Shown: positions 23,451 through 41,131 of the stretch, one piece after another
Numbering within the stretch: position 1 is the stretch's first letter
Layout: each line of letters starts with the position of its first letter
Origin: a virus
Lineage: Duplodnaviria; Heunggongvirae; Uroviricota; Caudoviricetes
Length of the DNA: 44,146 nucleotides
Virus record (IMG/VR): IMGVR_UViG_2698536573_000002
Strand: one strand, 5' to 3'
Made by a program: the position numbers and the translations under genes
Notes under the pieces: generated by a model
What the model saw: the letters and a program-made list of their open reading frames with translations, nothing else
The model's database searches: none
Told to the model about the DNA's origin: nothing

Positions 23451-23716
23451 TCATCATCTCCTGCCGCACATACAACCTCACAAAAAAAATCAGCAGAATG
23501 TTTCTCCTTGAACGAATGACGCTCAAAACCGCACTCAATATCAGGCGCAAAAACATCCACCACATACGGTCTTTCAGAATGTTTGTTTTCCCAACGATAA
23601 ACCGTAGTGACGTTGAAATGTTTTAACGCTTCACGGAACTCAACGCTGCCCGTCAGGTTTTTTGAGGTCAGGTATTGCAGGAGGTTTTTTACTACTTCAC
23701 GGTCTTGTACTTTCAT
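23447..23716 (-). CDS. hypothetical protein, first gene after repeat copy 1
   Basis: 89 aa; ATG at 23716 is the last triplet of the conserved repeat, RBS GGAGA inside repeat. Confidence 0.4.
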   Translation of the reverse strand: MKVQDREVVKNLLQYLTSKNLTGSVEFREALKHFNVTTVYRWENKHSERPYVVDVFAPDIECGFERHSFKEKHSADFFCEVVCAAGDDE

Positions 23717-23825
23717 CAGATTTCTCCGGTTTAACCAGGGCGGGTATCGCTCGGTTTCGGGTATAACCTTAGGAAATTTTTTCCCACCTGTAAAGCACTT
23801 TTTATATAAATCTATAATTATATAA
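23717..23825 (-). repeat. ~109-bp promoter-bearing repeat, copy 1
   Basis: Near-identical to 29974-30082 and 40078-40187; contains TTTACA-17bp-TAAGGT, 5' leader and RBS. Confidence 0.85.
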
Positions 23826-23827
23826 TT

Positions 23828-24415
23828 TTATGCCACTTGCCAGAGAGCATCATGCAACTGGATACCTCCATTGCACTGGTTGCCCCAGCCATGCCAACCA
23901 TCAGGTAAATCACCGCGAGCAAACAGCTCAATACGAGGAACATCACCTAACAGCCTTACCAGCTTGTCACGAACCACATCAGGCTTCCGAGAATGCTCCA
24001 GACGAGGCGATGTAAACGACTGAATGATCCCCGCATCAAGGCGGGTCGGCAATTTGCCTTTTACCGCAAACAAGCAATCTTCACTGTTTGCACGAGTCAT
24101 ATGCCCCATCCCCATCACCAGCTTATCTGGTTGTCGGCTACCACATTTGTTCCATGTGAAGCCCTTCATGGTCATAAGCCTGAATCCCCATGCTTTCACC
24201 ACCAGCAACGCTTCTTCTGGCTGAGTCGGAACCCACCACATGGCCAACAAACACGATTCAGGATTAGCAAGCTGCCAGACAGGAATACGAGCAATATCCT
24301 CAGCTTTCATCGTTGGATACTTAAAACCAGCTCCACGATTCCCATCCTTACACTTATCTTTGTATTCCCAGGGGGGATCTGCATAAATCAGATTAAACAA
24401 TGCAATTGCCTCCAT
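23828..24415 (-). CDS. MT-A70 family DNA N6-adenine methyltransferase
   Basis: 195 aa starting ...LIYADPPWEY (DPPW catalytic motif near N-terminus). Confidence 0.75.
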   Translation of the reverse strand: MEAIALFNLIYADPPWEYKDKCKDGNRGAGFKYPTMKAEDIARIPVWQLANPESCLLAMWWVPTQPEEALLVVKAWGFRLMTMKGFTWNKCGSRQPDKLVMGMGHMTRANSEDCLFAVKGKLPTRLDAGIIQSFTSPRLEHSRKPDVVRDKLVRLLGDVPRIELFARGDLPDGWHGWGNQCNGGIQLHDALWQVA

Positions 24416-24799: not shown

Positions 24800-24968
24800 A
24801 TATTTGATTTGTTTGTCTGGTGTGGCGCCGCGCACGAAAATCCCAGCCAATAAATTCAGGATTTTTGGGCGCGGCGGCATATCAGACAAACATGGTTGAT
24901 GCGTGCGCCCATGAGAAAAGCGCATAGAATGTTGTAACTATATATTTATATAATTATAGAAATATATA

Positions 24969-25178
24969 TTACTTTCGGCAGTTGATTTCCCATGCCCTGT
25001 TATGAGCCAGAATATCTTTCTTTGTCTGGCGGTCCATAACATCGATGTCGTGATCAGTCAGGTAGATGGGCTTTACCCAATCACAGGCGGTATCAACCAC
25101 CACCGGGACGCTTCCACGACTCCCGCAGCTCGCGATCAACATCGTCATCAGCCATATGGTTAACACTCTGCTGTACAT
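24969..25178 (-). CDS. o-spanin (Rz1-like lipoprotein)
   Basis: 69 aa with lipobox-like LIASC after hydrophobic N-terminus; overlaps 3' end of i-spanin gene in another frame. Confidence 0.5.
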   Translation of the reverse strand: MYSRVLTIWLMTMLIASCGSRGSVPVVVDTACDWVKPIYLTDHDIDVMDRQTKKDILAHNRAWEINCRK

Positions 25179-25371
25179 TCCCCACCTCTTTTGTCACTTC
25201 TATACGCCGCTCCGCAGTGGCTTTTACGGCGGCTGCATTCTCATTAATGCGCTGCTTTTCAGCTTCATCTTCGGCCTTTTCTCGCCCCTTCATACGACCA
25301 AAACCAAACGCACCGAATGCAACCAATATAACGGTGCCGATAAATGACAAAACGGCTTTCAAACCAGTCAT
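25093..25371 (-). CDS. i-spanin (Rz-like)
   Basis: 92 aa, N-terminal TM helix then charged coiled region; directly after endolysin. Confidence 0.5.
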   Translation of the reverse strand: MTGLKAVLSFIGTVILVAFGAFGFGRMKGREKAEDEAEKQRINENAAAVKATAERRIEVTKEVGNVQQSVNHMADDDVDRELRESWKRPGGG

Positions 25372-25910
25372 ACCACCACTCGCTCTTTCATCCAGCCGTA
25401 GACAAACGACTCATTAGCCTCGCGCTTCTCCGCCAGCTCCAGATAGCGTTCGCCCTGCGTACAGTTCAGCGACGTCAGCATCACCCGTTCGCCGTCTTTT
25501 CCCCGATTCCCAAGATAAGCACGTAGCGCATTAATGGTACGTGGACCGATTCGTCCGTCTGCATCCAAATCGGGATACAGCTTCCCGCGCAGGTTGAACA
25601 CATTCAGCCAGCGTTGAAGCATTTTTGACGCCACTGTTGGCCCCATGTTCACCCCCGTGTCACACAGCTCTGCGGCAATATCAGAGGATAATGCGGCCAC
25701 CTGATCAAAGCGTGGTCCGTACCAGTAATCAGCCTCAAGGATTTCCAGTGCCTGTTCGCGGGTTAAATCGCGCATATCGCCACGGTATCCATGAGCACGG
25801 GCAGTGTTCTGAGTAATGCCCCACTTTGTTGGGCCTCCCTTGTCGTCAGGGTGATCCACATAGCCGCCCTCTTTTCCAAGAACGCTGTTAAAAATCTCAT
25901 CTTTGGTCAT
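25368..25910 (-). CDS. endolysin, GH108-type lysozyme with C-terminal peptidoglycan-binding domain
   Basis: 180 aa; N-terminal LGKEGGYVDHPDDKGGPTKWGIT motif. Confidence 0.75.
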   Translation of the reverse strand: MTKDEIFNSVLGKEGGYVDHPDDKGGPTKWGITQNTARAHGYRGDMRDLTREQALEILEADYWYGPRFDQVAALSSDIAAELCDTGVNMGPTVASKMLQRWLNVFNLRGKLYPDLDADGRIGPRTINALRAYLGNRGKDGERVMLTSLNCTQGERYLELAEKREANESFVYGWMKERVVV

Positions 25911-26229
25911 GATTAAACCCTAATGCGTCAACTATCCGCGCCAGATTGCCCCTGAAATACAGAACAACGATGCAGATAATCAGATTTCCAATAACCACCA
26001 GCCAGTGGGATTCTTGATAAAGACCGAACACATAACGGAAGGGAACATTGGCGTATACAATGACGTAGATATAAGCCAGAAAGGAAACAAATGGACGATG
26101 CCTGGAGTCTTTCCGTCGATAAAGCATCAGCGCCATTACTATTACTGTGCAAAGCACCGCATTAATCAGTGCTGACGGGTCACTGCTTACCATTTGAACC
26201 CCCTCCACGTAAGCGGGAAAGCATTCCAA
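25897..26229 (-). CDS. putative holin/antiholin-like membrane protein
   Basis: 110 aa with multiple hydrophobic helices between holin and endolysin. Confidence 0.45.
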   Translation of the reverse strand: MECFPAYVEGVQMVSSDPSALINAVLCTVIVMALMLYRRKDSRHRPFVSFLAYIYVIVYANVPFRYVFGLYQESHWLVVIGNLIICIVVLYFRGNLARIVDALGFNHDQR

Positions 26230-26575
26230 AGATGCTACCGAGATCCTGGCTGTTTACGAACGTGAGGATTTTAATTGTCAATGCAGCCACAATAACCGCA
26301 CCAAGCGCATCAAGAGGACGATCGTTGTAGCTGGTCCATTTGGCAAGAAATGAGCCAACTAACGGCGCTCCAATCACTCCAACAATGAACGATGTAAAGA
26401 AATAGCCAATCAGCTTGAGACGGCTAATATTCACCGCTGTAGCAACATAGAAAACAGCGCCAGCAAATGCCCCGAATACAACGCCGTAATCAATACCAGT
26501 TGCAATACCAAAAACGCTGGCACCCATCAGGCCACCAGCAGCAACGGCCGTACCGGAAATTGGTTCTGCTGACAT
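26180..26575 (-). CDS. putative holin
   Basis: 131 aa, highly hydrophobic, first gene of lysis cassette; RBS GAGGA 7 nt upstream. Confidence 0.5.
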   Translation of the reverse strand: MSAEPISGTAVAAGGLMGASVFGIATGIDYGVVFGAFAGAVFYVATAVNISRLKLIGYFFTSFIVGVIGAPLVGSFLAKWTSYNDRPLDALGAVIVAALTIKILTFVNSQDLGSIFGMLSRLRGGGSNGKQ

Positions 26576-26588
26576 TGAAATCCTCGTT

Positions 26589-26620
26589 AAAAAAAAAGCC
26601 CCGCCGAAAAAGGCAGGGCT
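26589..26620 (-). terminator. intrinsic terminator immediately upstream of holin
   Basis: Minus-strand hairpin (agccctgcc/ggcggggct) followed by 9 U; ends ~14 nt before holin start. Confidence 0.55.
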
Positions 26621-26905
26621 TCATAAAGCAACAAATTACGCGGTAATCGCTTAACGCAGTTTTACTACGTTAAATGAAACACTACACCCAGTTACCACCT
26701 AAAACAAGGTTTCCCCATAAAAAAACCTTCACAATGTGGTTAATCGATCGATAAAAAAACAATACTTAACTTTTGACCAACCGAACATCCCGACCAGGAC
26801 TTCCATAATATTCGCCGATATGCCACTGCTTAAGTTGAGTAATCTTCTCCAACTTAACTCCCATAGAGTCCAGTTTCTGCCATGTTTTCGGTTGTATGTG
26901 CTTCA

Positions 26906-27265
26906 TTACCCGCTCTGAATATCTGAATACTGCTCGTAAGCGCATGGATTCTCACTACAGCTTATCCAACCACCCGGAGTTACCGAAACTGGCGGCGCGG
27001 CATATAGCTTACGGGTCTGAACACCTGCCCCCTGACATTTCTCTTCCTCAACAAACCATTCGAAAGCACATTCCCCGCAATCTTCCCATTCTCCCCATTC
27101 ATCATATTCTGCATCCCACTGGCGATACTGATATGCCACCGGTTCTGCTTCCAGCAAGGCTAACGCTATTTCATAAGCCCGGCGCTCAATATTGTCTCGC
27201 ACATCCAAGCGGCCTATGCGCTCTTTGATTTCTTTAATCAGTTCTTTGTCGGTAAAAGTGGTCAT
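26906..27265 (-). CDS. hypothetical Cys-containing acidic protein
   Basis: 119 aa ORF; CGEC...C motif. Confidence 0.3.
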   Translation of the reverse strand: MTTFTDKELIKEIKERIGRLDVRDNIERRAYEIALALLEAEPVAYQYRQWDAEYDEWGEWEDCGECAFEWFVEEEKCQGAGVQTRKLYAAPPVSVTPGGWISCSENPCAYEQYSDIQSG

Positions 27266-27471
27266 TTGTTAATCCTCAAAACTTTATGCCCGGGCGCAAA
27301 AGCACGCGTTTTGTCTTTGCTTATTCGCCAGCCATCCTTGCGCGCCTCTTTTGCACAGCCAGCCCATGACGTACCGATATACTCACCGAAGTCTGGCACT
27401 GGATATACACCTTCCGTACACTGGCGGCAGTCACAATAGAGATGCATGGTGTAACTTGCGGCAATAGCCAT
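27262..27471 (-). CDS. hypothetical small Cys-rich protein
   Basis: 69 aa, CDCRQC motif. Confidence 0.3.
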   Translation of the reverse strand: MAIAASYTMHLYCDCRQCTEGVYPVPDFGEYIGTSWAGCAKEARKDGWRISKDKTRAFAPGHKVLRINK

Positions 27472-27472
27472 A

Positions 27473-28036
27473 TCATTCTCCTTTGATGCGAATACCAGCA
27501 GCGCGGATTGCAGCGATGACTTCAGAAACTTTGTATGCCATTACCGTTTGGTAATCCTCGTGAAAATCTGTTCGATGAAGCATGCTGCTACGTTCTGGGA
27601 GCGATATTTCCCGTGCTTCCAGTTCTGCAATGCGCTTCTCTGCGGATTCCAACGCCGCAACCAATTCGTCTACAGTTCCGGCAGCTTGCAGTGCGTAATC
27701 GGTAATAGCCATCTCATGATCAATTTCAGTACCGTTCTCATTCGTTGAGGTGATAGCAAAATAATCAGAGTCGATTTCGTTATCAGCTAAGTGGCGTAGC
27801 GTATCGGCAACAAGCCGGCCGTTTTCGATTAGCAGCTTCCCTACCGTAAGCGCAATATCCTCGTTCTCCTGGTCGCGGCGTTTGATGTATTGCTGGTTTC
27901 TTTCCCGTTCATCCAGTAGTGCCAGCATAACCTGAGGTGTGACTTTCATACGAAATGCCAGCAATTTTTGAGGCGTTGCTACTGTTTCAATTGCTACTGC
28001 TGCCTCACGCAGTGCCTGATAGTTAATCTCACTCAC
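27473..28036 (-). CDS. hypothetical protein
   Basis: 187 aa ORF, coupled to neighbours. Confidence 0.3.
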   Translation of the reverse strand: MSEINYQALREAAVAIETVATPQKLLAFRMKVTPQVMLALLDERERNQQYIKRRDQENEDIALTVGKLLIENGRLVADTLRHLADNEIDSDYFAITSTNENGTEIDHEMAITDYALQAAGTVDELVAALESAEKRIAELEAREISLPERSSMLHRTDFHEDYQTVMAYKVSEVIAAIRAAGIRIKGE

Positions 28037-28550
28037 TGATTGCTCCCCCGCAAACCAATCCTGAACGGATTACCGTTTTTACAATATGCGCCCGTAATTG
28101 TTGCGTTCCGTGGTACTTGATTGCCACATCGCGTAACTTATTAACCAGTTCCCTGACCTGATGTTCCTTTGCTTCCTGTGTCACAGGAATAATTCCAGCT
28201 CTCCGCCGTTCCTGAAGTTCCAGCATTGCGGCCCGGAAATCCTGCCACCATTCCTCATCGGCTACTGGGGTGTTCCGCTCCAGCACCTTGTCCGCATCGG
28301 CGATCAGGTTTGACAGACTCTTGTCTGAAATCTTCGTTACCGGAGTCGTTGGTTGCTCAACCTGCCCGATAGGTTTTATCGTGCTCAAAAGGAGGCGACG
28401 GCGGGAAAGTGGTGCCCCACAACGACGGCCATCTTCCTTGCGATATGTTTCTTTCGGACCAACACACCAGGTTGTCGGCGTTTCGCGTAACTTCACTCTT
28501 TTCTCACCATCATTGGTAATGATTATTCCGGTATGGGTTTTGATGCTCAT
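28029..28550 (-). CDS. hypothetical protein
   Basis: 173 aa ORF. Confidence 0.3.
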   Translation of the reverse strand: MSIKTHTGIIITNDGEKRVKLRETPTTWCVGPKETYRKEDGRRCGAPLSRRRLLLSTIKPIGQVEQPTTPVTKISDKSLSNLIADADKVLERNTPVADEEWWQDFRAAMLELQERRRAGIIPVTQEAKEHQVRELVNKLRDVAIKYHGTQQLRAHIVKTVIRSGLVCGGAISE

Positions 28551-28828
28551 GCCACAGCCCCTCTCAACGGCTTTACTTTGGCTAATAAGGTGTTAAACAA
28601 CATGGAGTTAGGATTCATGCCAAATGGCAATTCCGGTTTAGCGGAGTAGTACAGGCAACCATTTATTTTCCTGGTTGTTATCTGTCCTTCGGCAACCATG
28701 CTTCTCAGTCTGCAACGCATAGAGTTCTGCGACACACCAATGTGTTCCGCGATTACGTCCACTTTTGAACATGGGTGATCGGTCAGGAAATTAATCACAT
28801 CTTGGGGGTTAATAATTTTGCGTTTCAT
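28547..28828 (-). CDS. putative winged-helix DNA-binding protein
   Basis: ORF 28547-28849; start at 28828 (MKRKI) preferred, AAGGA 11 nt upstream; AT-rich motif just upstream. Confidence 0.4.
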   Translation of the reverse strand: MKRKIINPQDVINFLTDHPCSKVDVIAEHIGVSQNSMRCRLRSMVAEGQITTRKINGCLYYSAKPELPFGMNPNSMLFNTLLAKVKPLRGAVA

Positions 28829-28905
28829 TGTCGAGGCGTCCTTATACATTTATATAAATATATAATTCTATATACGGCGGGAGACATCCCGCCGTAGGCT
28901 TACTG

Positions 28906-29973
28906 TCAGGCTTTCAATAGCGATTCTTTCAGATATCGGGCATCAGCCAGGGCGTTTGGAGTAATCTTGCGAACCCATGCATTACGGGTTGGACTCCACT
29001 TAAAGGCGCGTGATTTAAGCAGCGAACGAATGTTTGCCTCTGGTTTGCCAGGGAAATAAAACAGGATGCGGTTATCCTCTGGATCTATCTCCATAGAAAA
29101 GCCGTCGTATTCTTCGCGCTGTGCTCCTGTTACAGACTTGACCGATTCAAGCTCCTTAATACGGCTCTGTAGTCGTTTGATTTCGGCATTATTGTTACTC
29201 AGTGAGTATGAAGGGAAGCCAATGTGCCCACAGAAATCTCCGGCGAGTAACCCTTTGGCTTCGCTTTCAGTAAACTCAAGGTCAATTAATGCGGAAAGCT
29301 GCTGTAATTGGTCTTTTTTGTATTTGCGAATAGCCTTATTTGCGGCCTTCATTTTGATGTGTGACTTCATGCAGCCTTGCAGCTTACGAAGCAACTTAAA
29401 TAGCGCATCAGGATCATCAGACGAAACTCCATTACGGCCGACACCTGCGGCTTTGCTTTCGTAGTACGATGCTCTGCTTTCACACTCAACAAACGATTTT
29501 CTGAATAACGCATCAGCTTTAGACAAACGGCGGCGATGGCCTTTCGCGCTATAATGGTCAACTAAAATCGGCTGGCCTAACGGGATCACATCCAACAGTT
29601 CATGCGCTCGCTTATGCGCCACCGCACCTTCTTTTCTGGCTTTTTCTGCACGAGCAATATATCGGGCAAGACGCGCGTTCTGGCGTTCCTGATAGGTATT
29701 TACGTAATCATCTCCGCGCTGCTGCTGTTCAAGCCATGCTTTGCGCAGCTTTTCTGTTACGTCTACCAACTCTGCAGGGATACAACCTGTTTGGGATTCA
29801 TAAGAGTGACCATCCTCATAAAGACGTCCATCGTCTTCAACAACGAAAAAGGTTTCGTGCTCATCGCTTTTGACCATACGGCCATTAACATGACGTAATC
29901 TATAGCCAGTATCAGTGCTCAACAGGCTGTTAGGGTTGTTGATCCAGTCAGAAATAATTACTTGTTTATTCAT
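28906..29973 (-). CDS. hypothetical protein (355 aa), first gene after repeat copy 2
   Basis: ORF 28906-30123; start at 29973 (MNKQV) preferred because it is the ATG closing the conserved repeat. Confidence 0.45.
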   Translation of the reverse strand: MNKQVIISDWINNPNSLLSTDTGYRLRHVNGRMVKSDEHETFFVVEDDGRLYEDGHSYESQTGCIPAELVDVTEKLRKAWLEQQQRGDDYVNTYQERQNARLARYIARAEKARKEGAVAHKRAHELLDVIPLGQPILVDHYSAKGHRRRLSKADALFRKSFVECESRASYYESKAAGVGRNGVSSDDPDALFKLLRKLQGCMKSHIKMKAANKAIRKYKKDQLQQLSALIDLEFTESEAKGLLAGDFCGHIGFPSYSLSNNNAEIKRLQSRIKELESVKSVTGAQREEYDGFSMEIDPEDNRILFYFPGKPEANIRSLLKSRAFKWSPTRNAWVRKITPNALADARYLKESLLKA

Positions 29974-30082
29974 CAGATTTCTCCGGTTTAACCAGGGCGG
30001 GTATCGCTCGGTTTTGGGTATAACCTTAGGAAATTTTTTCCCACCTGTAAAGCACTTTTTATATAAATCTATAATTATATAT
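29974..30082 (-). repeat. ~109-bp promoter-bearing repeat, copy 2
   Basis: One mismatch vs copy 1 over ~105 bp; -35 tgtaaa at 30046-30051, -10 acctta at 30023-30028 (plus-strand coordinates). Confidence 0.85.
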
Positions 30083-30143
30083 TTATAGATTTTCCGATAT
30101 TCCCGGTGCCTACAAATCACCAAAACAGCTCAAAATGACACTT

Positions 30144-30521
30144 TCATTCTCTTCTCTTTTTCAAGTAGTCGACAACATACGCCCTGGCTTTTGCCAGCTT
30201 CCGGCGATACTGTCTGAGACTAAGAGAAAGGGCGTGGGCTTTATCAATATGCGGTGCATTTATGTCGAGGCCCCGAATCTCCCACGCCCCGTATTCAATT
30301 CGGACAACCAGCGCCGCAGTCTCATCAACTACCGTGAGGGCCGTCACCGCTCCCTCGATACTGGTTTCCAGTGAGTCATTTGGTGCGCCGCCCCCTCCGG
30401 TAAACTGGCAACGCGTAACCATCATCATTTCTAACATCGACGCGAAACCGCTACGGGCGTTGCAGCCATTGCGCACCCACAGCGCCCATAGCTCAAACAA
30501 GCTATCCAGATCGCGTCTCAC
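30144..30521 (-). CDS. putative Q-like antitermination protein
   Basis: 125 aa, GTG start overlapping upstream stop (GTGA); N-terminal LFELWALWVRNG resembles Q of 82/21 type as I recall it; last gene of early operon, followed by a promoter repeat. Confidence 0.4.
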   Translation of the reverse strand: MRRDLDSLFELWALWVRNGCNARSGFASMLEMMMVTRCQFTGGGGAPNDSLETSIEGAVTALTVVDETAALVVRIEYGAWEIRGLDINAPHIDKAHALSLSLRQYRRKLAKARAYVVDYLKKRRE

Positions 30522-30524
30522 TGT

Positions 30525-30857
30525 TCAGATCTCCCGTATCGTGACGGGATAAAGCGCCTCTACCTGCTTTTTCTTCATGATGTAGACGTCTGTTCGCACA
30601 CCTTTAGTGTCGACACAATCAATCGTCCCATCGTCATAAAACACCATGAAATCAAGTTTATAAACGACACCACCTGGCAGATGAAAAGGCACCTGCATAA
30701 GAAACGTCACAACGCGGCCAGCTTTTCTCAGTAGCTTCAGTTCGCAGTAGTAATCAGCCTCTTTTTTGCTATCAAAAGCGATATCATCGACAACCGTTTT
30801 TTTATTGCCGTATTTGCTTTTTCTGGTCGCTGGTTTGCGAAAGCCGGTATATCTCAT
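30525..30857 (-). CDS. DUF1064-family phage protein
   Basis: 110 aa with YGNKKTVVDDIAFDSKKEADYYCELKLL motif. Confidence 0.55.
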   Translation of the reverse strand: MRYTGFRKPATRKSKYGNKKTVVDDIAFDSKKEADYYCELKLLRKAGRVVTFLMQVPFHLPGGVVYKLDFMVFYDDGTIDCVDTKGVRTDVYIMKKKQVEALYPVTIREI

Positions 30858-31261
30858 TTGGTATCCCCTGGTACTTCACCAAGACTAAGATCAAACCCAA
30901 TTTCGTCTTTAACTGACTGCGGCAACAGCTCCCACGTCTGCGCACACAAAAATTCATCGGTGCCATAACGCTCAACAAAGCGAGCACAATTACTCAGGGG
31001 AGGGTGACGAACGGCAATATGCGGAGGCACACGCCCACCACCAGGCACAACACCGCGATGATGTGGTGCGCACAACCCAAAGCTATGGAAGTGGCAATTC
31101 TCATCAACGCTGCCGTAATCAGGATCGTGATGCAGCTCCGTCCACAGCTCTGGATTATCAATTTCACGGCCATCAATAATGCAAGCTATGCAACCCACGT
31201 GAGTGAGCACCGCTTGTATATAAAGTTTCTCTTTCTTCGTTGGTGTACGTCCGTTCATCAA
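30854..31261 (-). CDS. Cys/His-rich putative zinc-binding protein (possible HNH-like nuclease)
   Basis: 135 aa; GCIACII ... ELHHDPDYG ... NCHFHSFGLCAPHHRG. Confidence 0.3.
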   Translation of the reverse strand: MMNGRTPTKKEKLYIQAVLTHVGCIACIIDGREIDNPELWTELHHDPDYGSVDENCHFHSFGLCAPHHRGVVPGGGRVPPHIAVRHPPLSNCARFVERYGTDEFLCAQTWELLPQSVKDEIGFDLSLGEVPGDTK

Positions 31262-31491
31262 CGCCCCTTACCATTGATAAAGAGGTTGAACTCGTTAATT
31301 AACTGGACATACATGCTTCTGGCCGCGTAGTTCTTTGCCAGCTCTTTACGGGATGAGATCCCGCAAAACTCACGCAGAATCACAGAGGCCTCAGAACTGT
31401 TTGAAATGTTCTTCCCTGTTTTACTGGTCAGAAAGCGCCAGAATTGGGGATTCTGGCAATGCATCGCAGCACCGCGAACATAACCACTCAT
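31258..31491 (-). CDS. hypothetical protein
   Basis: 77 aa ORF in early operon. Confidence 0.25.
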   Translation of the reverse strand: MSGYVRGAAMHCQNPQFWRFLTSKTGKNISNSSEASVILREFCGISSRKELAKNYAARSMYVQLINEFNLFINGKGR

Positions 31492-32003
31492 TGATGGCCC
31501 CCGTCATTCCAGGTGCTTTTCACCGTGCGGCTGCTTAAAAACCTGCCATCACGAGAAACAGACACATCTCGTTTACCCAACCTCATTTCACGGCGGTAAC
31601 ATTCAGAAAATGCCTCGTCCGGCAGCATATAAATGCGACGCTTCGCCTCCGAATCCAGAAGGGAACGGCTTGGAGTTACATATAAAAACGACTCATCAAT
31701 AGGGACAAAACCACGAGCAAGAATTGCTGGCAGAATGCCAGGAAGAACGCAGAAAACAGCTCCACGATGCAGCAACATCTGGTACTCCATGACCTCCGTT
31801 ATCCCCGTGACGACTGTTACGGTGTCACGTCTGTTACGGCTGGCAACCAGTCGCTGCACACGTCCAATTTTCTGCTCTACAGATAGACGTTTACTATCGT
31901 TATCAATATGATCGATAACAAATCCTTTAATCGTTTGATCAAGGTAGTGCACCACCTGCGATTGAATCTGGTGATTATCACCAAAGAAGGCCAGAATCAT
32001 CAT
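31488..32003 (-). CDS. hypothetical protein
   Basis: 171 aa ORF in early operon. Confidence 0.3.
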   Translation of the reverse strand: MMILAFFGDNHQIQSQVVHYLDQTIKGFVIDHIDNDSKRLSVEQKIGRVQRLVASRNRRDTVTVVTGITEVMEYQMLLHRGAVFCVLPGILPAILARGFVPIDESFLYVTPSRSLLDSEAKRRIYMLPDEAFSECYRREMRLGKRDVSVSRDGRFLSSRTVKSTWNDGGHQ

Positions 32004-32494
32004 TCCTCAAGCCTCCCAAGTGCTGAACGCCGGGCGTTGCTAATCTCCTTATGAATCAGCTCGATATCGCTGGAATCTTTATTCTTAAACTCCAGCACGG
32101 CAATCGCATCACGAACCTCTGAAACGGTTACGTGTGAGTGTTTCCAGCGAGCAATGAATCGCGGACCGCGTAGATTGCAACGCTCCGCAGGTATCCCCAG
32201 CTCAGAGAAAACCGCTTTCAGCCTTGATAAGCAGTTAACAGGGAGATTCCCTTTGATCTTGTTCTGCCGAACCGATGTGCCATCGCTACGCTGGCGCTGA
32301 CGTTCGGCAAAATCTGCCGCCCATTGCTGGACATTAATCCGGCCTTCCGAATACGCCACCAGCAGCGTCAGGTTATCCGCACGAGGGAATCTCTCGAAGC
32401 GATACCAGGCACCAATCAGTGATGACGTAAAGCCAAACTTTCTGGCAACACCAATTTGGCCTCCATTTTCATCAACCCACTCCTGAAAGGTCAT
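32000..32494 (-). CDS. HTH DNA-binding protein, first gene of leftward-reading early operon (Cro/CII-like role)
   Basis: 164 aa; N-terminal HTH-like GQIGVARKFGFTSSLIGAWYRF; divergent from CI-like repressor across operator region. Confidence 0.4.
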   Translation of the reverse strand: MTFQEWVDENGGQIGVARKFGFTSSLIGAWYRFERFPRADNLTLLVAYSEGRINVQQWAADFAERQRQRSDGTSVRQNKIKGNLPVNCLSRLKAVFSELGIPAERCNLRGPRFIARWKHSHVTVSEVRDAIAVLEFKNKDSSDIELIHKEISNARRSALGRLEE

Positions 32495-32512
32495 TTAACT
32501 AACTCCAGTTAA

Positions 32513-32629
32513 ACCACGATATGTGGTATTAAAACCACAAATCGTGAGTTTTTCAATGGGAAAACAAAAAATAACCTTCTATTTGTGGTCTACCTCTCGT
32601 CTTGCCGTGTGAAAACCACTAAATGTGGT
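32513..32629. promoter_or_regulatory. immunity-region operators, consensus ACCAC-N5-GTGGT
   Basis: accacgatatgtggt 32513-32527, accacaaatcgtgag 32534-32548 (imperfect), half-site gtggt 32585-32589, accactaaatgtggt 32615-32629, between divergent regulator genes. Confidence 0.6.
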
Positions 32630-32666
32630 AATGTATAAATAACCCCCCATTCACGATTGATGAGAA

Positions 32667-33329
32667 ATGAAAAGCAACGACGAGAACATCAAGAAAGAAA
32701 TAGGTCTGCGCATTCAGACTCTACGGAAACAATCCGGCATGACTGCCGGAGATCTCCAGCAAGTCACTGGAATAGGCTTAAGCACCTTGCAGAACTATGA
32801 GGCCGGATTAAGACAACCATCTATACCTGCCATCAAGAAAATCGCGCACGCCCTGAAAGCATCAGCGCCTTATATCGCGTGCTTAACAGATAACCCGTTC
32901 CCACCCCAGAATACTAACGCTCCTGTTATTCCTGGGCTTGTAGCTATAAAAAATGACATAGCATCGCACGCCGGAGAAAAGCCAGTGCTGGCGATAGAAC
33001 AGGAGATTCTACGAAGCAAGAACATCAACCCATCGTCTCTGTCTGTTCTCCAGAGCAACGATGAGCTAAAGCTAATGTCACCAACAATATCCCCTGGCTC
33101 CCAAGTCCTGATTAATACAGACGATACAGAGATTCATGAGGGGATCTATGCCCTTGAAGACAGAAATGGCCTGGTTGTTTTGAGGCACTGTAGAGTCATA
33201 CCGGGTGACAATGCTGTTATGCTGTCAACCGAAAGGGATGCTGAAATGAACACTAAGCATCTGAATAACGAGGAATTTAAGCGTTATAAAGTTCTTGGCC
33301 GCGTAGTTAGTGTTGTCAACTGGTTATGA
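32667..33329 (+). CDS. CI-like prophage repressor (XRE-type HTH with LexA/S24-like C-terminal domain)
   Basis: 220 aa; N-terminal HTH (LRKQSGMTAGDLQQVTGIGLSTLQNYEAG), C-terminal domain with Ser/Lys candidates (LMSPT ... KVLGRVV). Confidence 0.65.
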   Translation: MKSNDENIKKEIGLRIQTLRKQSGMTAGDLQQVTGIGLSTLQNYEAGLRQPSIPAIKKIAHALKASAPYIACLTDNPFPPQNTNAPVIPGLVAIKNDIASHAGEKPVLAIEQEILRSKNINPSSLSVLQSNDELKLMSPTISPGSQVLINTDDTEIHEGIYALEDRNGLVVLRHCRVIPGDNAVMLSTERDAEMNTKHLNNEEFKRYKVLGRVVSVVNWL

Positions 33330-33371
33330 TACACAGCACGGCGAAAGCCGTGCATTTCTACGCTCAAAAAA

Positions 33372-33386
33372 ACCACGCTTTGTGGT
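33372..33386. promoter_or_regulatory. additional ACCAC-N5-GTGGT operator downstream of repressor gene
   Basis: accacgctttgtggt, perfect half-sites. Confidence 0.5.
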
Positions 33387-33421
33387 TTTGACAACATGAA
33401 AAAGTATAAAAGAGGCTACGC

Positions 33422-33796
33422 ATGGAATTACATACAGCCAATAAAAACGAAACTCTGATCACTGCTGGAATCGAAATCCAAGCGTTGAACATAGCGATTG
33501 AGTGTATGTTATGCCAACTCATTGATAATGAGAAAGATATCGACTGGATAGAATCTATCCTTCATCTGGCATCAGAACAAAAAGTCTGCCTCAAAACGGC
33601 CTTACAATACGATGTGCCAGCGATATCGAAGCTGTGCCAGCCATTGATGGCATATAACAGGGCTATTATTTCTGTATGCCTCATGATTCTCGATGAAAAC
33701 ACCCCTCTTAGCGACCGCTCAGAAGCTGCTCTAACCCTCTCACGTAAACAGCGACAGCTAGCAAATCAACTGATATCAACGATAGCTGACCTCTGA
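33422..33796 (+). CDS. hypothetical protein adjacent to repressor gene
   Basis: 124 aa, RBS AAGAGG 7 nt upstream; followed by hairpin at ~33802-33819. Confidence 0.4.
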   Translation: MELHTANKNETLITAGIEIQALNIAIECMLCQLIDNEKDIDWIESILHLASEQKVCLKTALQYDVPAISKLCQPLMAYNRAIISVCLMILDENTPLSDRSEAALTLSRKQRQLANQLISTIADL

Positions 33797-33820
33797 CTGC
33801 AAGCGGGCTAACGCCCGCTT

Positions 33821-33930
33821 ATATGATTATAGATTTATATAATTATATAAAACACTTTTCATCCGCCAAAAAGTTGGTTATGCTTACCTCATTCTATAAA
33901 TATAGATTTATAGAATTATATAATCAAACA
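33821..33930. repeat. clustered AT-rich palindromic motifs upstream of parA (candidate centromere/operator)
   Basis: tatgattatagatttatataattatataa and tataaatatagatttatagaattatataa; same core as in the three promoter repeats. Confidence 0.5.
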
Positions 33931-33946
33931 CATGGAGTCTCGACAA

Positions 33947-34600
33947 ATGACTATATCTGTAGGTATTTTCAACGGAAAAGGCGGCGTAACCAAATCAACC
34001 ATTGCTCGTGCTTTAGCAGTTGCTTATGCAAAGGCTGGCTGGAATGTATGCCTGATCGATATGGATGTGCTTAACGGAACGGTAACGCGTTGGGTACAAC
34101 GCAGAATGGCCAACAATATCGAACCTGCAATCGCGGCGCAGCCGTGCGGCACGCCATCACAAGTCCAGAAAATCATCGAATCAGAAGTATACGACCTGGT
34201 TATCGTTGATGGCGGTGCCTACGCATCTGAATCAGTACCGAAGCTCTCTGAATTTCTGGATATGGTTATTTTGCCAACCAGATTCTCTACCGATGACCTG
34301 GAAACCACCGTTAACACAGCTCACGGCATCGTTAAAAAGGGTGTACCAATCAAGAAAATTTGCATGGTGTTTTCCGGCGCGGCTGAAAACGAAGCTGACT
34401 ATATTGAAGCCCAAGAGTACCTGGCTAATACGCCATACTTTGTTGTCGATAAGTACATTCCCCACAAGCCAGCTCTGAGCAAAGCTCAGGATAAAGGCTT
34501 AAGCCTCATTGAGTGCTCATACGTTGCGCCACGCAAAAAAGCAGACGACGTTATTCAGGGGATTATCAACCAGCTTGAGGCTCTGACTACTGCCGCGTAA
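33947..34600 (+). CDS. ParA/ParF-type partition ATPase
   Basis: Deviant Walker A GIFNGKGGVTKST; start at second ATG (GGAG 9 nt upstream); ORF from 33932. Confidence 0.8.
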   Translation: MTISVGIFNGKGGVTKSTIARALAVAYAKAGWNVCLIDMDVLNGTVTRWVQRRMANNIEPAIAAQPCGTPSQVQKIIESEVYDLVIVDGGAYASESVPKLSEFLDMVILPTRFSTDDLETTVNTAHGIVKKGVPIKKICMVFSGAAENEADYIEAQEYLANTPYFVVDKYIPHKPALSKAQDKGLSLIECSYVAPRKKADDVIQGIINQLEALTTAA

Positions 34601-34643
34601 TATATAATTATAGTTTTATAGATTTATATAAGAGAGGATACAC

Positions 34644-34892
34644 ATGGCCGCACCATCAAAACCACCAAAGAAGAACAGCAAAGGCGTACCGCCATCGATC
34701 GAACAACCGCAGGTTTTCGACCCGACTGAAACGCCAGCCAGAACCAAATCAGGTGGGGCACAAATGGCGTTTAACGTCGACCCTGAATTTAAACGCGAGT
34801 ACAAAACGTTCGCCAGCTCAATGGATATGTCATTGAAAGAAGTGCTAACAAAATCTTTTGAGTTACTCAAGGCTCAATACAACCAGAAGTAA
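34644..34892 (+). CDS. ParG-like ribbon-helix-helix partition protein
   Basis: 82 aa, unstructured basic N-terminus then RHH-like MAFNVDPEFKREYKTFASSMDMSLKEVL; RBS GAGAGGA. Confidence 0.55.
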   Translation: MAAPSKPPKKNSKGVPPSIEQPQVFDPTETPARTKSGGAQMAFNVDPEFKREYKTFASSMDMSLKEVLTKSFELLKAQYNQK

Positions 34893-34954: not shown

Positions 34955-35104
34955 ATGTCCGAGCAACAATATACACGGTTACTGAAAACTCGTCTAACCG
35001 ACCTCAAACGGCTGCAAGCTGGTCGCTTATTTGCCCTGCTATCCACCAGGCCAGCATGGGTACGTGAAGCAGTTCTGAAAGGCTTAATGCGCTCCAGCGT
35101 TTAA
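34955..35104 (+). CDS. hypothetical small protein downstream of par genes
   Basis: 49 aa from internal ATG with AGGGGA RBS. Confidence 0.25.
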   Translation: MSEQQYTRLLKTRLTDLKRLQAGRLFALLSTRPAWVREAVLKGLMRSSV

Positions 35105-35112
35105 ATTCAACC

Positions 35113-35136
35113 ATAAAAAAGGCCCCCGAAGGGGCC
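35113..35136 (-). terminator. intrinsic terminator (minus-strand orientation)
   Basis: ggcccc-cgaa-ggggcc hairpin followed by U6 on minus strand, directly after small ORF 35143-35265. Confidence 0.5.
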
Positions 35137-35142
35137 TAATCG

Positions 35143-35265
35143 CTACTTGCTGCTAATGTTTATCGTCACATTCAGAGCGTTATCAGTAATCTTCCAACCC
35201 TCTCCATGTGGCGTAAACAAAGCCCCAGTAACAACGATAAAAATACACATGTAGTATTTTTTCAT
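35143..35265 (-). CDS. small hydrophobic peptide (40 aa)
   Basis: MKKYYMCIFIVVTGALFTPHGEGWKITDNALNVTINISSK; RBS AAGGG; own terminator. Confidence 0.35.
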   Translation of the reverse strand: MKKYYMCIFIVVTGALFTPHGEGWKITDNALNVTINISSK

Positions 35266-35655
35266 TGTGTGGCCCTTACAGGCCGTTTCACGGCATCCCC
35301 ACCGACGAAAATGACGCGAGAGCAAGCACGCTGTTTGTGCCTGCGTGGTACGGCAAGTGGATAATCCTTTCCTGAAAGTCAGTGCCCGGGTGCGAATCGG
35401 CGGAAAGGCCCCAAGCCATATTACACGTCATACCCTTCATAATGAAGGAATAAAAAACGCTTTTATTACATGAGATTACACGTAAATAAGTTAAAAACCT
35501 TCATTTTGCATGAGCTAATGAGCTAAATTTTTTTATATGAATAGTGGACTATTCACCTCAGTTAGGTAAGAATGTAGTTGCTGTTTGTGCTTGCGTGGTT
35601 GTATTAGTACAACGACGTTATGCTGAAAGGACCGCGAATCCGATCAGCACGAAAG

Positions 35656-36419: not shown

Positions 36420-36521
36420 AATGCGCCATTGGTGGACACTTTCCGAGCCGTAGCAAAATCTACGGTCGGGATTGGAACCCCGATAATCATCATGGCGCAT
36501 ACCGCGTTAGCGGTTTTTTTA
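36420..36521 (+). ncRNA. candidate small regulatory RNA (c4-like) upstream of antirepressor operon
   Basis: TTGACA at 36412-36417; terminator accgc-gtta-gcggt + T7 at 36501-36520; short elements complementary to leader near 36603-36634. Confidence 0.3.
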
Positions 36522-36685
36522 TGCGTAAAGCACTGCTACACCCAAATTATGGTGGGGCGTGCGGGGGAGTCGTAAGACTCGCCGGATTCCATGGTGACCG
36601 GTAGTTCCAACCCTGTACGTCTCACCACCCAATGATTGGAACCAGACGGTGGTGAGTATCCTTAACCTTTAAGGGAACTATCACC

Positions 36686-36877
36686 ATGACAAACCTACCC
36701 CATGACTATTACGTCAACCTCGTAAAGATCCTTCTCAAGAAAGCCTCATACGCCGATAAATTCCGCCTGGCTGAAATCATCGAGCGCGAAGCTATGCGCA
36801 TCGCCAGCAACGATAACGCTGTTTCTGTCGCAAAAATCTCCCTCGTAACCAAAGTAGTTATGGGAGGTGCAAAATGA
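36686..36877 (+). CDS. small leader protein translationally coupled to antirepressor (icd-like position)
   Basis: 63 aa; stop TGA overlaps ant ATG (ATGA); RBS AAGGGA. Confidence 0.45.
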   Translation: MTNLPHDYYVNLVKILLKKASYADKFRLAEIIEREAMRIASNDNAVSVAKISLVTKVVMGGAK

Positions 36878-38057: not shown

Positions 38058-38090
38058 CAAAGCGCCCGATTTGGGCGCTTCTTCAATTCT
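38058..38090. terminator. bidirectional intrinsic terminator between convergent genes
   Basis: agcgccc-gattt-gggcgct flanked by T-rich tracts on both strands. Confidence 0.5.
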
Positions 38091-38725
38091 TAATATTTCG
38101 GTGTAATCAGTAGCGATACATGCCCTGATTTGTCACGAGAAACGTAATACTCGCCTCTCTTAGTCTTGAACTCAGCTTTCTGCATATCTGATTTAACAAT
38201 CTGCTCTAACTGCGCAATCACGGTGTCTCTTTCACTTGACGCATCCAAGACTTCAACTGCTACGGCCATAGAAAGCAAGGAATCAGAGTTAGGCTTGGAT
38301 ACTCGCCATAATAACTCAGAAATCTTCCCATCCTTATCAACTCTAGCCCGACCGTTAACAGATGAGTTGATGGCAAATTCAACGGTGTTATTACCTTGTT
38401 TAACAGACTTAATTCTTATAGTGGAGGTGGCTTTTCCTGATGTAGCGATGCCTTCAAGGTCATCATTATATAACTGCTTAAACTTATCTACGGTCACACC
38501 ATCAAAAGCAGCTCCGGTAGTAGCCGCAGTGTTGGAGTCTTCTGGGATCAAGGTCACAGCCGCAAGAGTATTAACAACTACAAAAGTAGCAATCCCGAGA
38601 AAGCCACTCACTAAAACAGCTTTGAACTTACCACCAGAAGACGAGGCACATTGTTTCCGATATGCGCCACGAACTACGAAGAAACACAAAATCAGGCTAA
38701 TAATAAACGCCACCAGCATCCCCAT
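38090..38725 (-). CDS. membrane protein with two N-terminal TM helices
   Basis: 211 aa; hydrophobic segments then soluble domain; RBS AAGGAG. Confidence 0.45.
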   Translation of the reverse strand: MGMLVAFIISLILCFFVVRGAYRKQCASSSGGKFKAVLVSGFLGIATFVVVNTLAAVTLIPEDSNTAATTGAAFDGVTVDKFKQLYNDDLEGIATSGKATSTIRIKSVKQGNNTVEFAINSSVNGRARVDKDGKISELLWRVSKPNSDSLLSMAVAVEVLDASSERDTVIAQLEQIVKSDMQKAEFKTKRGEYYVSRDKSGHVSLLITPKY

Positions 38726-39696: not shown

Positions 39697-40077
39697 TTAC
39701 TTAACGAGGAATAAAAATGGTTTATTGTTCGGCGGTGTAATCGGAGCTGGCTCGCTTTTGCTCATGCGATCAGTGTACCAGGCCAGCTCCTTGTCAAAGT
39801 AAGCCTGATTAAAATAGGCAATGAATGTAGTTTCAAATCCATAACGACCGCTAATACGCAGCATCTGATTGCCGTTCTCTGTTTCCAGATATACCTGGGC
39901 ACGTTCCTGATTCTCCTTCAGCCAGGTTAAAGCCTCATCGCACGAGGACACACGATACTCATCATCGTAGCCGTCATCGATGCGGCTTGAAGAAGAACGG
40001 CAAATCACGCCAACAGAACCAGCCAGGATAGTTTGAATTTTAAGGAAAGCGTTTTTGCGGATTTTAATCATGCTCAT
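39697..40077 (-). CDS. hypothetical protein, first gene after repeat copy 3
   Basis: 126 aa; ATG at 40077 closes the conserved repeat. Confidence 0.4.
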   Translation of the reverse strand: MSMIKIRKNAFLKIQTILAGSVGVICRSSSSRIDDGYDDEYRVSSCDEALTWLKENQERAQVYLETENGNQMLRISGRYGFETTFIAYFNQAYFDKELAWYTDRMSKSEPAPITPPNNKPFLFLVK

Positions 40078-40187
40078 CGGGTTATCTCCGGTTTAACCAG
40101 GGCGGGTATCGCTCGGTTTCGGGTATAACACTAGGAAATATTTTCCCACCTGTAAAGCACTTTTTATATAAATCTATAATTATATAA
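40078..40187 (-). repeat. ~109-bp promoter-bearing repeat, copy 3
   Basis: About 95 percent identical to copies 1 and 2; same -35/-10 spacing. Confidence 0.85.
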
Positions 40188-40240
40188 TTCCATGAGCACA
40201 AAAAAGCCCCTTTGCAACAGGGGCTTATCATTCGTTCTGA

Positions 40241-40893: not shown

Positions 40894-41131
40894 TCCTATA
40901 ACCTGTAGTTTATATCACTAACTATATAACCTGTGGGTTATAATTTCAAGAAAAACGGGGCCATTTAACATAATGGACGTTATCGGCACCACCGGATCAC
41001 CGTTCATTGTCGGATCTAAAAAATCCGCTCAAAAGATCATGTTTTCCTGGGCGTTTTCCACTGTTTTTTATGTTGCTTATTTGTTAATGAAATCTCGTTT
41101 TCAGTTTCGCCTCATTTTCGACACGAAAGCC

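Follow-up and report, generated by a model that had tools for sequence, protein, structure and literature searches.

In the ParF-ParG partition system of plasmid TP228, one ParG dimer binds each of a series of tetramer boxes separated by 4-bp AT-rich spacers, and the operator doubles as the centromere (PMC3130281). A second arrangement is found in pSM19035, where the ribbon-helix-helix (RHH) protein omega binds short tandem repeats at several separate sites (parS1-3), each overlapping the promoter of a maintenance gene; one site lies before the ATPase gene and another before omega's own gene, and omega combines the roles of segregation factor and global repressor (PMC5016525). The plasmid prophage N15 has four separate, dispersed inverted-repeat centromere sites for SopB (PMC7205306). 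Here we describe dispersed repeat arrays in a 44,146-nucleotide stretch of DNA (hereafter the window) that is part of an E. coli phage-plasmid of about 48.5 kb. The literature search turned up no account of the partition system of this element, nor of type Ib systems in phage-plasmids, and a paper on the Y. pestis phage HQ103 does not mention partition.

TP228 is a close likeness. In it, too, a small ParA-type ATPase precedes a small protein whose N-terminal tail is flexible and whose C-terminal part is an RHH (predicted here), and its parH/OF sites likewise combine a 4-bp box with a 4-bp AT-rich spacer at an 8-bp period and in mixed orientation (PMC3130281; PMC5016525). An array beside genes overlaps a promoter in TP228 and, by prediction, here, and could thus serve as operator and centromere together. 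However, the box is ACTC there and TATA here; in TP228 the 20 boxes form one contiguous block (a locus of ~100 bp), whereas the window has eight separate arrays, one of them in the parA-parG gap; and sequence similarity between TP228 ParG and the 82-aa protein encoded here is barely detectable. With delta/omega of pSM19035 the locus shares an RHH-type candidate centromere protein and several separate short arrays, one of them before the ATPase gene at a predicted promoter and another before the putative binder gene. It differs in having 8-bp units in arrays of 3-4 instead of 7-bp heptads (WATCACW) in arrays of 7-10, in residing on a phage rather than a plasmid of a Gram-positive host, and in its putative targets, among them phage early-region, lysis-proximal and unknown genes; no relationship in sequence was detected. 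The first-pass annotation had compared the motif with the dispersed centromere or regulator sites of N15. The idea of such sites is supported by the position of the arrays, which is that of type Ib operators and centromeres, by their linkage to par and by their co-variation with the ParG-like orthologue, but the likeness to N15 SopA/SopB is one of layout only, a plasmid prophage with scattered rather than clustered (here candidate) sites: N15 has a type Ia system, in which the large HTH protein SopB/ParB binds 16-bp-type palindromes and spreads, and the present one appears to be type Ib, with an RHH-like protein and tandem 8-bp units. In the IncC/KorB system of the IncP plasmids RK2/RP4, 12 dispersed OB sites, several at promoters including those of transfer operons, make KorB a global regulator. 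Sites are dispersed here too, and the conjugative-plasmid relatives have arrays inside a type IV secretion operon, but KorB is a large HTH ParB protein that acts at a distance from single palindromes, and there is no homology.

Census and placement of the arrays

Exactly eight arrays of 3-4 tandem 8-bp units were found in the window, spanning about 16 kb and all confined to gaps between genes (Table 1); a search of the complete 48.5-kb element returned none beyond these eight. The pattern TATA-N4-TATA has 24 matches in the window, compared with shuffled sequences, which have 0.59 on average and never more than 3, and all 24 lie inside the eight arrays, no other region of the window having one. 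A 21-mer core, for which 100 dinucleotide shuffles provided the chance baseline, matched 12 times at <=3 mismatches in the window and never in the shuffles. The motif is far more frequent than chance predicts, and it was recovered at all five intervals listed in the first-pass annotation and at the upstream end of every copy of a long repeat. Its description as a palindrome is apt for the TATA box within each unit, but the whole is a tandem 8-bp repeat, not one palindrome. Over the eight arrays, the 27 in-phase units have the consensus TATA[T/G]A[A/T]T, in which TATA is invariant, the remaining 4 bp form a spacer and the 8-bp phasing is strict.

Table 1. Repeat arrays, promoter cassettes and partition genes in the window (promoters are predicted).
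Feature	Position	Strand	Description
Array A	23801..23824	-	3 in-phase units, TATATAAT TATAGATT TATATAAA
Array B	24935..24966	-	4 units; upstream of the tRNA; lysis genes on one side, long hairpin plus tRNA-Met on the other
Array C	28849..28872	-	3 units plus degenerate TGTATAAG
Array D	30058..30081	-	3 units plus reversed TCTATAAA; heads cassette copy 2, upstream of DUF3560 gene
Array E	33820..33851	+	4 units; directly upstream of predicted par promoter -35
Array F	33901..33924	+	3 units plus reversed TCTATAAA; between predicted -10/start and parA ribosome-binding site
Array G	34601..34632	+	4 units; fills parA-parG intergenic gap, ends at parG ribosome-binding site
Array H	40163..40186	-	3 units; heads cassette copy 3
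Cassette copy 1	23704..23830	-	predicted promoter TTTACA-17-TAAGGT at 23766-23794
Cassette copy 2	29961..30087	-	predicted promoter 30023-30051
Cassette copy 3	40066..40192	-	predicted promoter 40128-40156, -10 TAGTGT
par promoter, predicted	33856..33884	+	TTTTCA-17-TATGCT; bracketed by arrays E and F
parA	33947..34600	+	217-aa ParA/MinD-type ATPase
parG-like gene	34644..34892	+	82 aa; downstream of parA; proposed array binder

The long repeat proved to be about 127 bp in length, not the 109 bp first given, and each of its three copies consists of an array, a predicted promoter, a conserved leader, a ribosome-binding site and an ATG. Array A, at the head of copy 1, touches the stop codon of an MT-A70 methylase gene and lies upstream of an 89-aa gene; array H is downstream of a RelE/HTH toxin-antitoxin pair and upstream of a 126-aa gene. 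Array C has the DUF3560 gene's terminator on one side and, on the other, the ribosome-binding site belonging to a 93-aa winged-helix gene; it is followed by AAGGACGCCTCGACAATG, a junction identical to that at parA. Array E lies just past the hairpin ending the upstream 124-aa gene. The motif had also been said to lie at many promoters and to flank parA/parG. Half of the arrays (four of eight) do sit 3-5 bp upstream of a -35-like hexamer, the promoters being sequence predictions, and the predicted promoters carrying arrays are that of par and those of the three cassettes; arrays F, G and C each adjoin a ribosome-binding site and not a -35 element, with G in front of parG, and prediction found no recognisable promoter after array B. 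Two arrays lie upstream of parA and one between parA and parG, but none downstream of parG.

The partition genes

ParA is a small Walker-type ATPase of type Ib size, without the N-terminal DNA-binding domain of type Ia proteins; its residues 5-186 match Pfam CbiA/ParA/MipZ and there is a weak match to TP228 ParF structures. No ParB/SopB partition gene lies next to parA, whose partner is instead the gene for the 82-aa RHH-like protein, and, as type Ib systems have direct or inverted short repeats upstream of the operon at its promoter, so arrays E and F bracket the predicted par promoter here. Judged by its predicted products and repeats, the system is type Ib, that is, a small ParA and an RHH protein on short tandem units, and not a type Ia system of SopB and inverted repeats.

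The 82-aa protein comprises a disordered, lysine/proline-rich tail (residues 1-40) and a strand-helix-helix region with the beta-strand QMAFNVD; an AF2 model places helices at residues 47-59 and 62-80 and leaves residues 1-40 disordered. An ordinary homologue search recovered only relatives of at least 80% identity, whereas an exhaustive representative search revealed a family of 75-90-aa proteins, 13 of 41 members of which match Pfam RHH_10. By hhalign this family falls in register with the RHH of TP228 ParG (P 2e-4), and its profile matches ParG 1p94 weakly in the PDB (E 0.82). The window's own protein has no match in Pfam, the Pfam ParG model matches neither it nor any of the 41 relatives, and phmmer found no match to it among PDB sequences. 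Foldseek of the monomer model against the PDB returned meaningless matches only and is uninformative; half of the model is low-confidence disorder and the RHH strand forms only in the dimer. With a disordered tail ahead of a ribbon-helix-helix, the protein looks like a type Ib centromere-binding protein, on signals that are individually weak.

Repeat units across related replicons

The decisive evidence is comparative, in that the sequence of the unit co-varies with the ParG-like orthologue. Among relatives drawn from tblastn searches of plasmid and phage collections, arrays recur at the par positions in every replicon with a ParG-like orthologue, including conjugative plasmids that otherwise share almost nothing with the element; where the orthologue has diverged, dispersed arrays occupy the same par positions with a different 8-bp unit. 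A Salmonella phage-plasmid has the TATA unit of the E. coli element, with 8 arrays each, and keeps all eight positions although neighbouring proteins are only 60-92% identical. Two Serratia phage-plasmids have TAAA/TTAA-type units in about 9 and 6 arrays; a strict TAAA-N4 pattern missed the arrays of one of them (L006), which were seen by eye, so that the Serratia unit is only loosely defined. A Vibrio phage-plasmid has 7-8 arrays of GCACGAAA units, which contain G and C, at the same par positions and in short intergenic gaps. In two conjugative plasmids a related 28-bp palindrome, CTATAAAAATATAATTATATTTTTATAG, occurs both at par and within the type IV secretion operon. The order array, predicted promoter, array, ribosome-binding site, parA is common to the Salmonella phage-plasmid, the two Serratia phage-plasmids and a Pantoea plasmid.

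The phased unit patterns do not cross between replicons, the exception being one TATA match in the Pantoea plasmid, and the predicted DNA-facing residues of the beta-strand shift in step with the unit (Q-A/S-N, A/P-N-N, P-N-K, Q-N-Y). In tblastn, the window's ORFs gave matches to both conjugative plasmids for ParA and a ~74-aa RepA-like segment only; ParG is too diverged for a match there and was assigned by synteny and family alignment. A distant ParG homologue is also present in plasmid pTP33 of Y. pestis, in which no repeat unit could be defined.

Candidate roles of the arrays and competing readings

We put at about 70% the probability that the arrays are sites for the ParG-like protein, those at par forming centromere and operator and the others extra loading or regulatory sites. 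The sequences show the arrays with their phasing and positions, the RHH-like character of the protein and the co-variation between unit and protein; binding, centromere activity and the direction of regulation are what we infer, and the component claims differ in strength. Recognition of the arrays by the ParG-like protein has the odds well in its favour; one dimer would sit on each 8-bp unit (TATA box plus 4-bp spacer), so that each array would be coated by 3-4 dimers. The par-proximal arrays E, F and G are likely to act as a type Ib centromere and operator, where the bound protein would bring in the ParA ATPase to segregate the plasmid and would also silence the par promoter that E and F bracket, an autoregulation. 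Arrays A, B, C, D and H would be additional loading sites that place nearby genes under ParG control, most likely repression through occlusion of an AT-rich upstream element or the -35, or through cover of the leader; from about -40 to -65 an array could instead be activating, and we give regulation of adjacent genes an even chance. That the dispersed arrays also add to the partition complex is conceivable at somewhat less than even odds. Three of these five could have spread passively within a duplicated promoter cassette. For a type Ib centromere, an array of 3-4 units is small; with four boxes TP228 reached about half activity, and ParF recruitment in vitro was not visible (PMC3130281).

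It is improbable that the arrays are operators of another regulator encoded by the element (the 93-aa winged-helix protein, the 124-aa protein, a CI-like repressor or the HTH antitoxin), with the par position reflecting co-regulation only. In its favour, the winged-helix gene has array C directly upstream of it and the antitoxin gene has array H directly downstream, synteny of the 124-aa gene extends to the phage-plasmid relatives, and one conjugative plasmid (L004) has a closely related RelE/HTH pair. Yet tblastn found no match for the winged-helix, 124-aa or DUF3560 proteins in the array-bearing Serratia, Vibrio or conjugative-plasmid replicons, and the winged-helix protein, suggested in the first-pass annotation as a possible binder, is absent from Serratia relatives that still have arrays. 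The repressor's own operators, adjoining its gene, are a different motif (ACCAC-N4/5-GTGGT), the toxin-antitoxin promoter region (about 40894-40972) has no array, and the array-bearing Pantoea plasmid has no toxin-antitoxin pair beyond a distant one located elsewhere.

AT-rich promoter modules, such as UP elements or -10-like TATAAT strings, or targets of H-NS, Fis or IHF would require no dedicated plasmid protein. H-NS is drawn to AT-rich tracts in enterobacteria, TATAAT is contained in the array units, and the spacing of four arrays from their -35-like hexamers is exactly that of a UP element. We nevertheless hold such an origin to be very improbable, given the strict phasing and invariant TATA, the abutment of F, G and C on ribosome-binding sites, the presence of G and C in Vibrio arrays (GCACGAAA) that keep the par positions and short gaps, and the fact that the units of the E. 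coli phage-plasmid and an E. coli conjugative plasmid differ within one host genus. An AT-only motif in non-coding DNA might arise by chance or low complexity in AT-rich intergenic spacers, but this has next to no probability and is already refuted by the counts given above, by the absence of the motif outside the arrays and by the retention of all eight positions in the Salmonella relative. RepA iterons or an origin were rejected on distance, repA being about 2 kb from its nearest array, packaging sites because conjugative plasmids have arrays too, and AU-rich translational enhancers in RNA because the Vibrio arrays contain G/C and the unit tracks the DNA-binding protein.

With the ParG-like protein as binder, a broader and more tentative proposal is an undescribed type Ib family whose centromere would be 4-9 scattered mini-arrays of 8-bp units and whose RHH protein would be segregation adaptor and global regulator in one, hosted by phage-plasmids of E. 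coli, Salmonella, Serratia and Vibrio and by small conjugative plasmids. Portable cassettes ('array + promoter + leader' and 'array + ribosome-binding site') would bring new genes into the regulon, and the unit sequence would follow from a simple beta-strand code of three residues (Q-A-N, A/P-N-N, P-N-K, Q-N-Y), in which case specificity could be re-programmed and directly tested. Phage-plasmids must combine stable low-copy inheritance with a silent lytic programme, and were a single 82-aa partition protein to occupy eight genomic sites, segregation and the expression of several phage and accessory genes would be wired to one factor, a phage case of what omega does for pSM19035 and KorB for RK2. 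The comparative series would be a ready-made specificity experiment, with one architecture, four or five 8-bp units and matching beta-strand changes, and offers a route to annotating an uncharacterised protein family without a Pfam model, together with its sites, in many plasmids. The element is common in E. coli, occurring in 61 PLSDB plasmids, including that of the E. coli reference strain ATCC 25922, and has also been isolated as infectious Yersinia phages, so that experiments should be easy to set up.

Eight arrays of a tandem 8-bp unit

The first-pass annotation described a dispersed AT-rich palindromic motif, which is present in all five of the intervals it listed and is well above chance frequency. 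Its 21-mer core has 12 matches with up to 3 mismatches against 0 in 100 shuffles, and TATA-N4-TATA, a composition-free way of describing it, occurs 24 times where 0.59 are expected (shuffle maximum 3), always within eight short AT-only stretches. The motif is nevertheless not a single palindrome but a tandem 8-bp repeat: a repeat finder places the copies in register at 8-bp spacing, and in-phase splitting yields 27 units in which TATA never varies (consensus TATA[T/G]A[A/T]T), three or four to an array, with a degenerate or reversed edge unit in some arrays. Each of the eight arrays (A–H) has at least one TATAG aimed at the downstream gene, and a search of the full ~48.5-kb element returned none beyond these eight.

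Every promoter named here is a sequence prediction. Read in gene orientation, each of arrays A, D and H is separated by 5 bp from the predicted promoter TTTACA-17-TAAGGT (TAGTGT in H), downstream of which come a conserved leader of ~45 nt, the ribosome-binding site GGAG and ATG; these three cassettes head unrelated genes, the products being, for A, D and H respectively, a protein of 89 aa, a DUF3560 protein and one of 126 aa. Arrays E and F lie before and after the predicted par promoter, which is thus bracketed. The array C region and the parA start have a junction in common, (A)GGA..CTCGACAA(A)TG, and no promoter was seen by sequence inspection downstream of array B.

An inverted repeat lies within the 17-bp spacer of the cassette promoters, with TAGGAAAAAAAGTCCTA at the equivalent position in homologous Serratia cassettes, and may be bound by a second regulator of the same promoters. 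A second portable module, comprising array, ribosome-binding site and CTCGACAA(A)TG, is common to the parA start and to unrelated genes: in the window the winged-helix gene, and in the Serratia elements one of 293 aa and one of the Lar family. The stretch containing the hairpin beside array B has a folding energy of -49.2 kcal/mol (z = -5.3 against shuffles), and the hairpin may act in termination or processing or form a small RNA.

Positions of the arrays and of other sequence features in the window and in related replicons
Feature	Replicon	Coordinates (strand)	Context
Arrays A, D, H	window		identical 24-mer TATATAATTATAGATTTATATAAA; upstream end of three-copy ~127-bp repeat
Array B	window		between lysis genes and strong hairpin that precedes tRNA-Met
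Array C	window		between terminator and ribosome-binding site of 93-aa winged-helix-like gene
Array E	window		predicted promoter TTTTCA-17-TATGCT starts 3 bp after array
Array F	window		between predicted par promoter and parA ribosome-binding site
Array G	window		fills 43-bp parA-parG gap
Inverted repeat GGGAAAAAATTTCC (n = 3)	window	23766-23794, 30023-30051, 40128-40156 (-)	cassette promoter spacers
Array–ribosome-binding site module	window	28826-28848, 33925-33949	
Array–ribosome-binding site module	L006 (Serratia)	~38090-38107	
Array–ribosome-binding site module	L007 (Serratia)	~27715-27729	
Long imperfect hairpin	window	24810-24893 (-)	between array B and tRNA-Met
131-nt stretch containing hairpin	window	24800-24930	
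28-bp palindromes, type IV secretion operon	L004 (E. coli conjugative plasmid)	15095-15142, 16871-16912	
28-bp palindromes, type IV secretion operon	L005 (Pantoea conjugative plasmid)	19261-19301, 21031-21068	
ACCAC-N4/5-GTGGT palindromes (repeated)	window	32500-32640	between CI-like repressor gene and divergent early operon
ACCAC-N4/5-GTGGT palindromes	window	33370-33395	upstream of 124-aa gene
Strong intrinsic terminator	window	26595-26622 (-)	directly upstream of holin ribosome-binding site
49-aa unannotated ORF, MSEQQYTRLLKTRLTDLKRLQ...	window	34955-35104 (+)	just 3' of parG
ryfA RNA	window	35115-35413 (-)	Rfam match above gathering score
isrK and C4 antisense RNA	window	36447-36520 (+), 36545-36632 (+)	Rfam matches above gathering score
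ORF6N/antirepressor-like gene	window	36874-38055	downstream of ryfA, isrK and C4 matches

The ParA partner and arrays in related replicons

ParA comprises 217 aa with ParA/MinD-type domains, lacks an extra N-terminal domain and has TP228 ParF among its weak PDB matches. The gene that follows encodes an 82-aa protein (MAAPSKPPKKNSKGVPP...GGAQMAFNVDPEFKREYKTFASSMDMSLKEVLTKSFELLKAQYNQK; ParG hereafter), which alone has no Pfam match and no PDB sequence match. An exhaustive homologue search recovered 55 clusters, mostly of 75-90-aa proteins, together with a few long proteins whose similarity is limited to the N-terminal tail. The family conserves this tail (KPPKK..KG.PP) and a C-terminal block (LNFKV..EF.REFK.FA...DMSM.ELL), and its members match RHH_10 (13 of 41) and Antitox_RHH (8 of 41) in Pfam. 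The family profile is in register with the ribbon-helix-helix (RHH) of TP228 ParG at residues 30-71 (P 2e-4), and TP228 ParG (1p94) and ArtA are among its top, albeit weak, matches in PDB. In an AF2 monomer model residues 1-40 are disordered and an extended segment precedes helices at 47-59 and 62-80, the appearance that would be expected of an RHH monomer without its partner. Hence, we conclude that the 82-aa protein is, by predicted architecture, a type Ib centromere-binding protein, but that its sequence does not place it in the TP228 ParG family.

We compared every replicon found to carry a diverged orthologue of this protein. A Salmonella Weltevreden plasmid has eight TATA arrays at all eight syntenic positions; its ParA and ParG are 95% and 90% identical to those in the window, whereas neighbouring proteins reach only 60-92% (flanking repressor 64%, 124-aa protein 60%), which fits either a constraint imposed by the need to match eight arrays or recent exchange of the module. 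In two Serratia phage-plasmids ParG is 40-46% identical and the virion modules differ, and both retain the order terminator, array, promoter, array, ribosome-binding site, parA, with a parA-parG array in one of the two. Dispersed arrays included, they have about 9 and 6, of which three in each head a homologous promoter-leader cassette and one heads a 'CTCGACAATG' junction. The Serratia units are of TAAA/TTAA type (for example AATTAAAG and AAATATTT), and TATA-N4-TATA does not occur in either element. A Vibrio phage-plasmid (ParG about 36-43%) has two arrays ahead of parA and another five or six in short gaps within the early and virion operons; its 8-bp units are GCACGAAA/GTAAGAAA/GGCAGAAA, and a phased GAAA pattern forms 7 clusters there against none in the other replicons.

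Two small conjugative plasmids, from E. coli (NZ_CP122934) and Pantoea (NZ_CP045219), encode ParA at 45-46% and ParG at 36% identity, the latter too diverged for tblastn and assigned by synteny and family alignment. Both carry the 28-bp palindrome CTATAAAAATATAATTATATTTTTATAG, or variants of it, ahead of parA, in the parA-parG gap and at two gaps within the type IV secretion operon. In tblastn with the ORFs of the window, ParA and a RepA-like segment of ~74 aa are the only matches to both plasmids, and a related toxin-antitoxin pair is found in one; so the arrays travel with parA-parG rather than with the phage. The secretion-operon gaps are equivalent in the two plasmids, one ahead of the gene for a small lipoprotein and the other separating virB9 from virB10, which suggests that ParG may also act on transfer-gene expression.

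Differences in the unit are mirrored in the protein. The aligned beta-strands are QMAFNVD in E. coli, QMSFNVD in Salmonella, AMNFNVD and PMNFNMD in Serratia, QLNLYVD and QLNLYID in the conjugative plasmids and PLNFKVD in Vibrio. In RHH proteins such as Arc, MetJ and omega, it is every other residue of the beta-strand that faces the major groove (PMC5016525). The positions predicted to do so read Q-A/S-N in E. coli and Salmonella, A/P-N-N in Serratia, Q-N-Y in the conjugative plasmids and P-N-K in Vibrio; they differ exactly where the unit differs, with lysine where it gains G and C. Such a pattern would be expected were the 82-aa protein to read the arrays, although it is correlation and not proof.

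ALTERNATIVES

The arrays might instead be operators of another regulator encoded by the element (the winged-helix protein, the 124-aa protein, the CI-like repressor or the HTH antitoxin), which we consider unlikely. No homologue of the winged-helix, 124-aa or DUF3560 proteins was detected in the Serratia, Vibrio or conjugative replicons, the toxin-antitoxin promoter region is without an array, and the CI-like repressor has beside its gene the ACCAC-N4/5-GTGGT palindromes, which are probably its own operators and distinct from the TATA arrays. That the arrays are generic AT-rich promoter modules or H-NS targets seems slightly less probable still, since such a reading accounts neither for the strict 8-bp phase nor for the arrays that adjoin ribosome-binding sites, and leaves unexplained the different units of the two E. 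coli replicons and the G+C within the Vibrio arrays.

Proposed role of the arrays and features of the element

In TP228, where 4-bp boxes alternate with AT-rich spacers of 4 bp, each box takes one ParG dimer, and the array nearest the promoter is operator and centromere at once (PMC3130281). By analogy, one dimer of the present ParG would bind each 8-bp unit, giving a cooperative coat of 3-4 dimers per array, and arrays E, F and G (11 units) would be the obvious centromere and operator. The dispersed arrays resemble the separate parS sites of pSM19035 omega at several promoters (PMC5016525), the dispersed operators of KorB and the four scattered SopB sites of N15 (PMC7205306), and on this likeness we favour a dual role in partition and regulation. 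The regulatory role is the somewhat better supported of the two, because the dispersed arrays are packaged with promoter and ribosome-binding site modules copied to unrelated genes, and because four-box arrays alone were poor recruiters of ParF in TP228 (PMC3130281). Either repression or activation of the cassette promoters by ParG would be compatible with the sequence.

A search of the literature library found no description of this par system, of the 82-aa protein family or of dispersed-site type Ib systems in phage-plasmids. The component parts are all of known kinds; their combination appears to be new, joining an RHH type Ib system with 8-bp units, many mini-arrays across a phage genome and conjugative plasmids, portable cassettes and a readable specificity series.

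The window corresponds, in reverse complement, to the greater part of a circular phage-plasmid of ~48.5 kb. Across the par region its identity to plasmid NZ_CP009073.1 of E. coli ATCC 25922 is 99.8%, and it matches 61 PLSDB plasmids, every one typed as non-mobilizable. It also shares 98-99% identity with three Yersinia myophages that have been isolated, vB_YpM_39, 41 and 44. Besides a P2-like tail and head module and a lysis module, the annotated record includes a RepA replicon, a CI-like repressor, a RelE/HTH toxin-antitoxin pair, and a ParA gene with a small hypothetical one after it. The arrangement of terminator and holin is the layout of a putative antitermination-controlled late/lysis operon. 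The ryfA, isrK and C4 matches, the last of the kind found in P1/P7-type immI regions, suggest a second, RNA-based immunity circuit. The 49-aa ORF downstream of parG is kept in the Salmonella, Serratia and Vibrio phage-plasmids and absent from the conjugative plasmids. The exact 21-mer core also occurs in 19 stretches of IMG/VR viral contigs (L011-L029), including 68- and 82-kb contigs with at most 3 copies.
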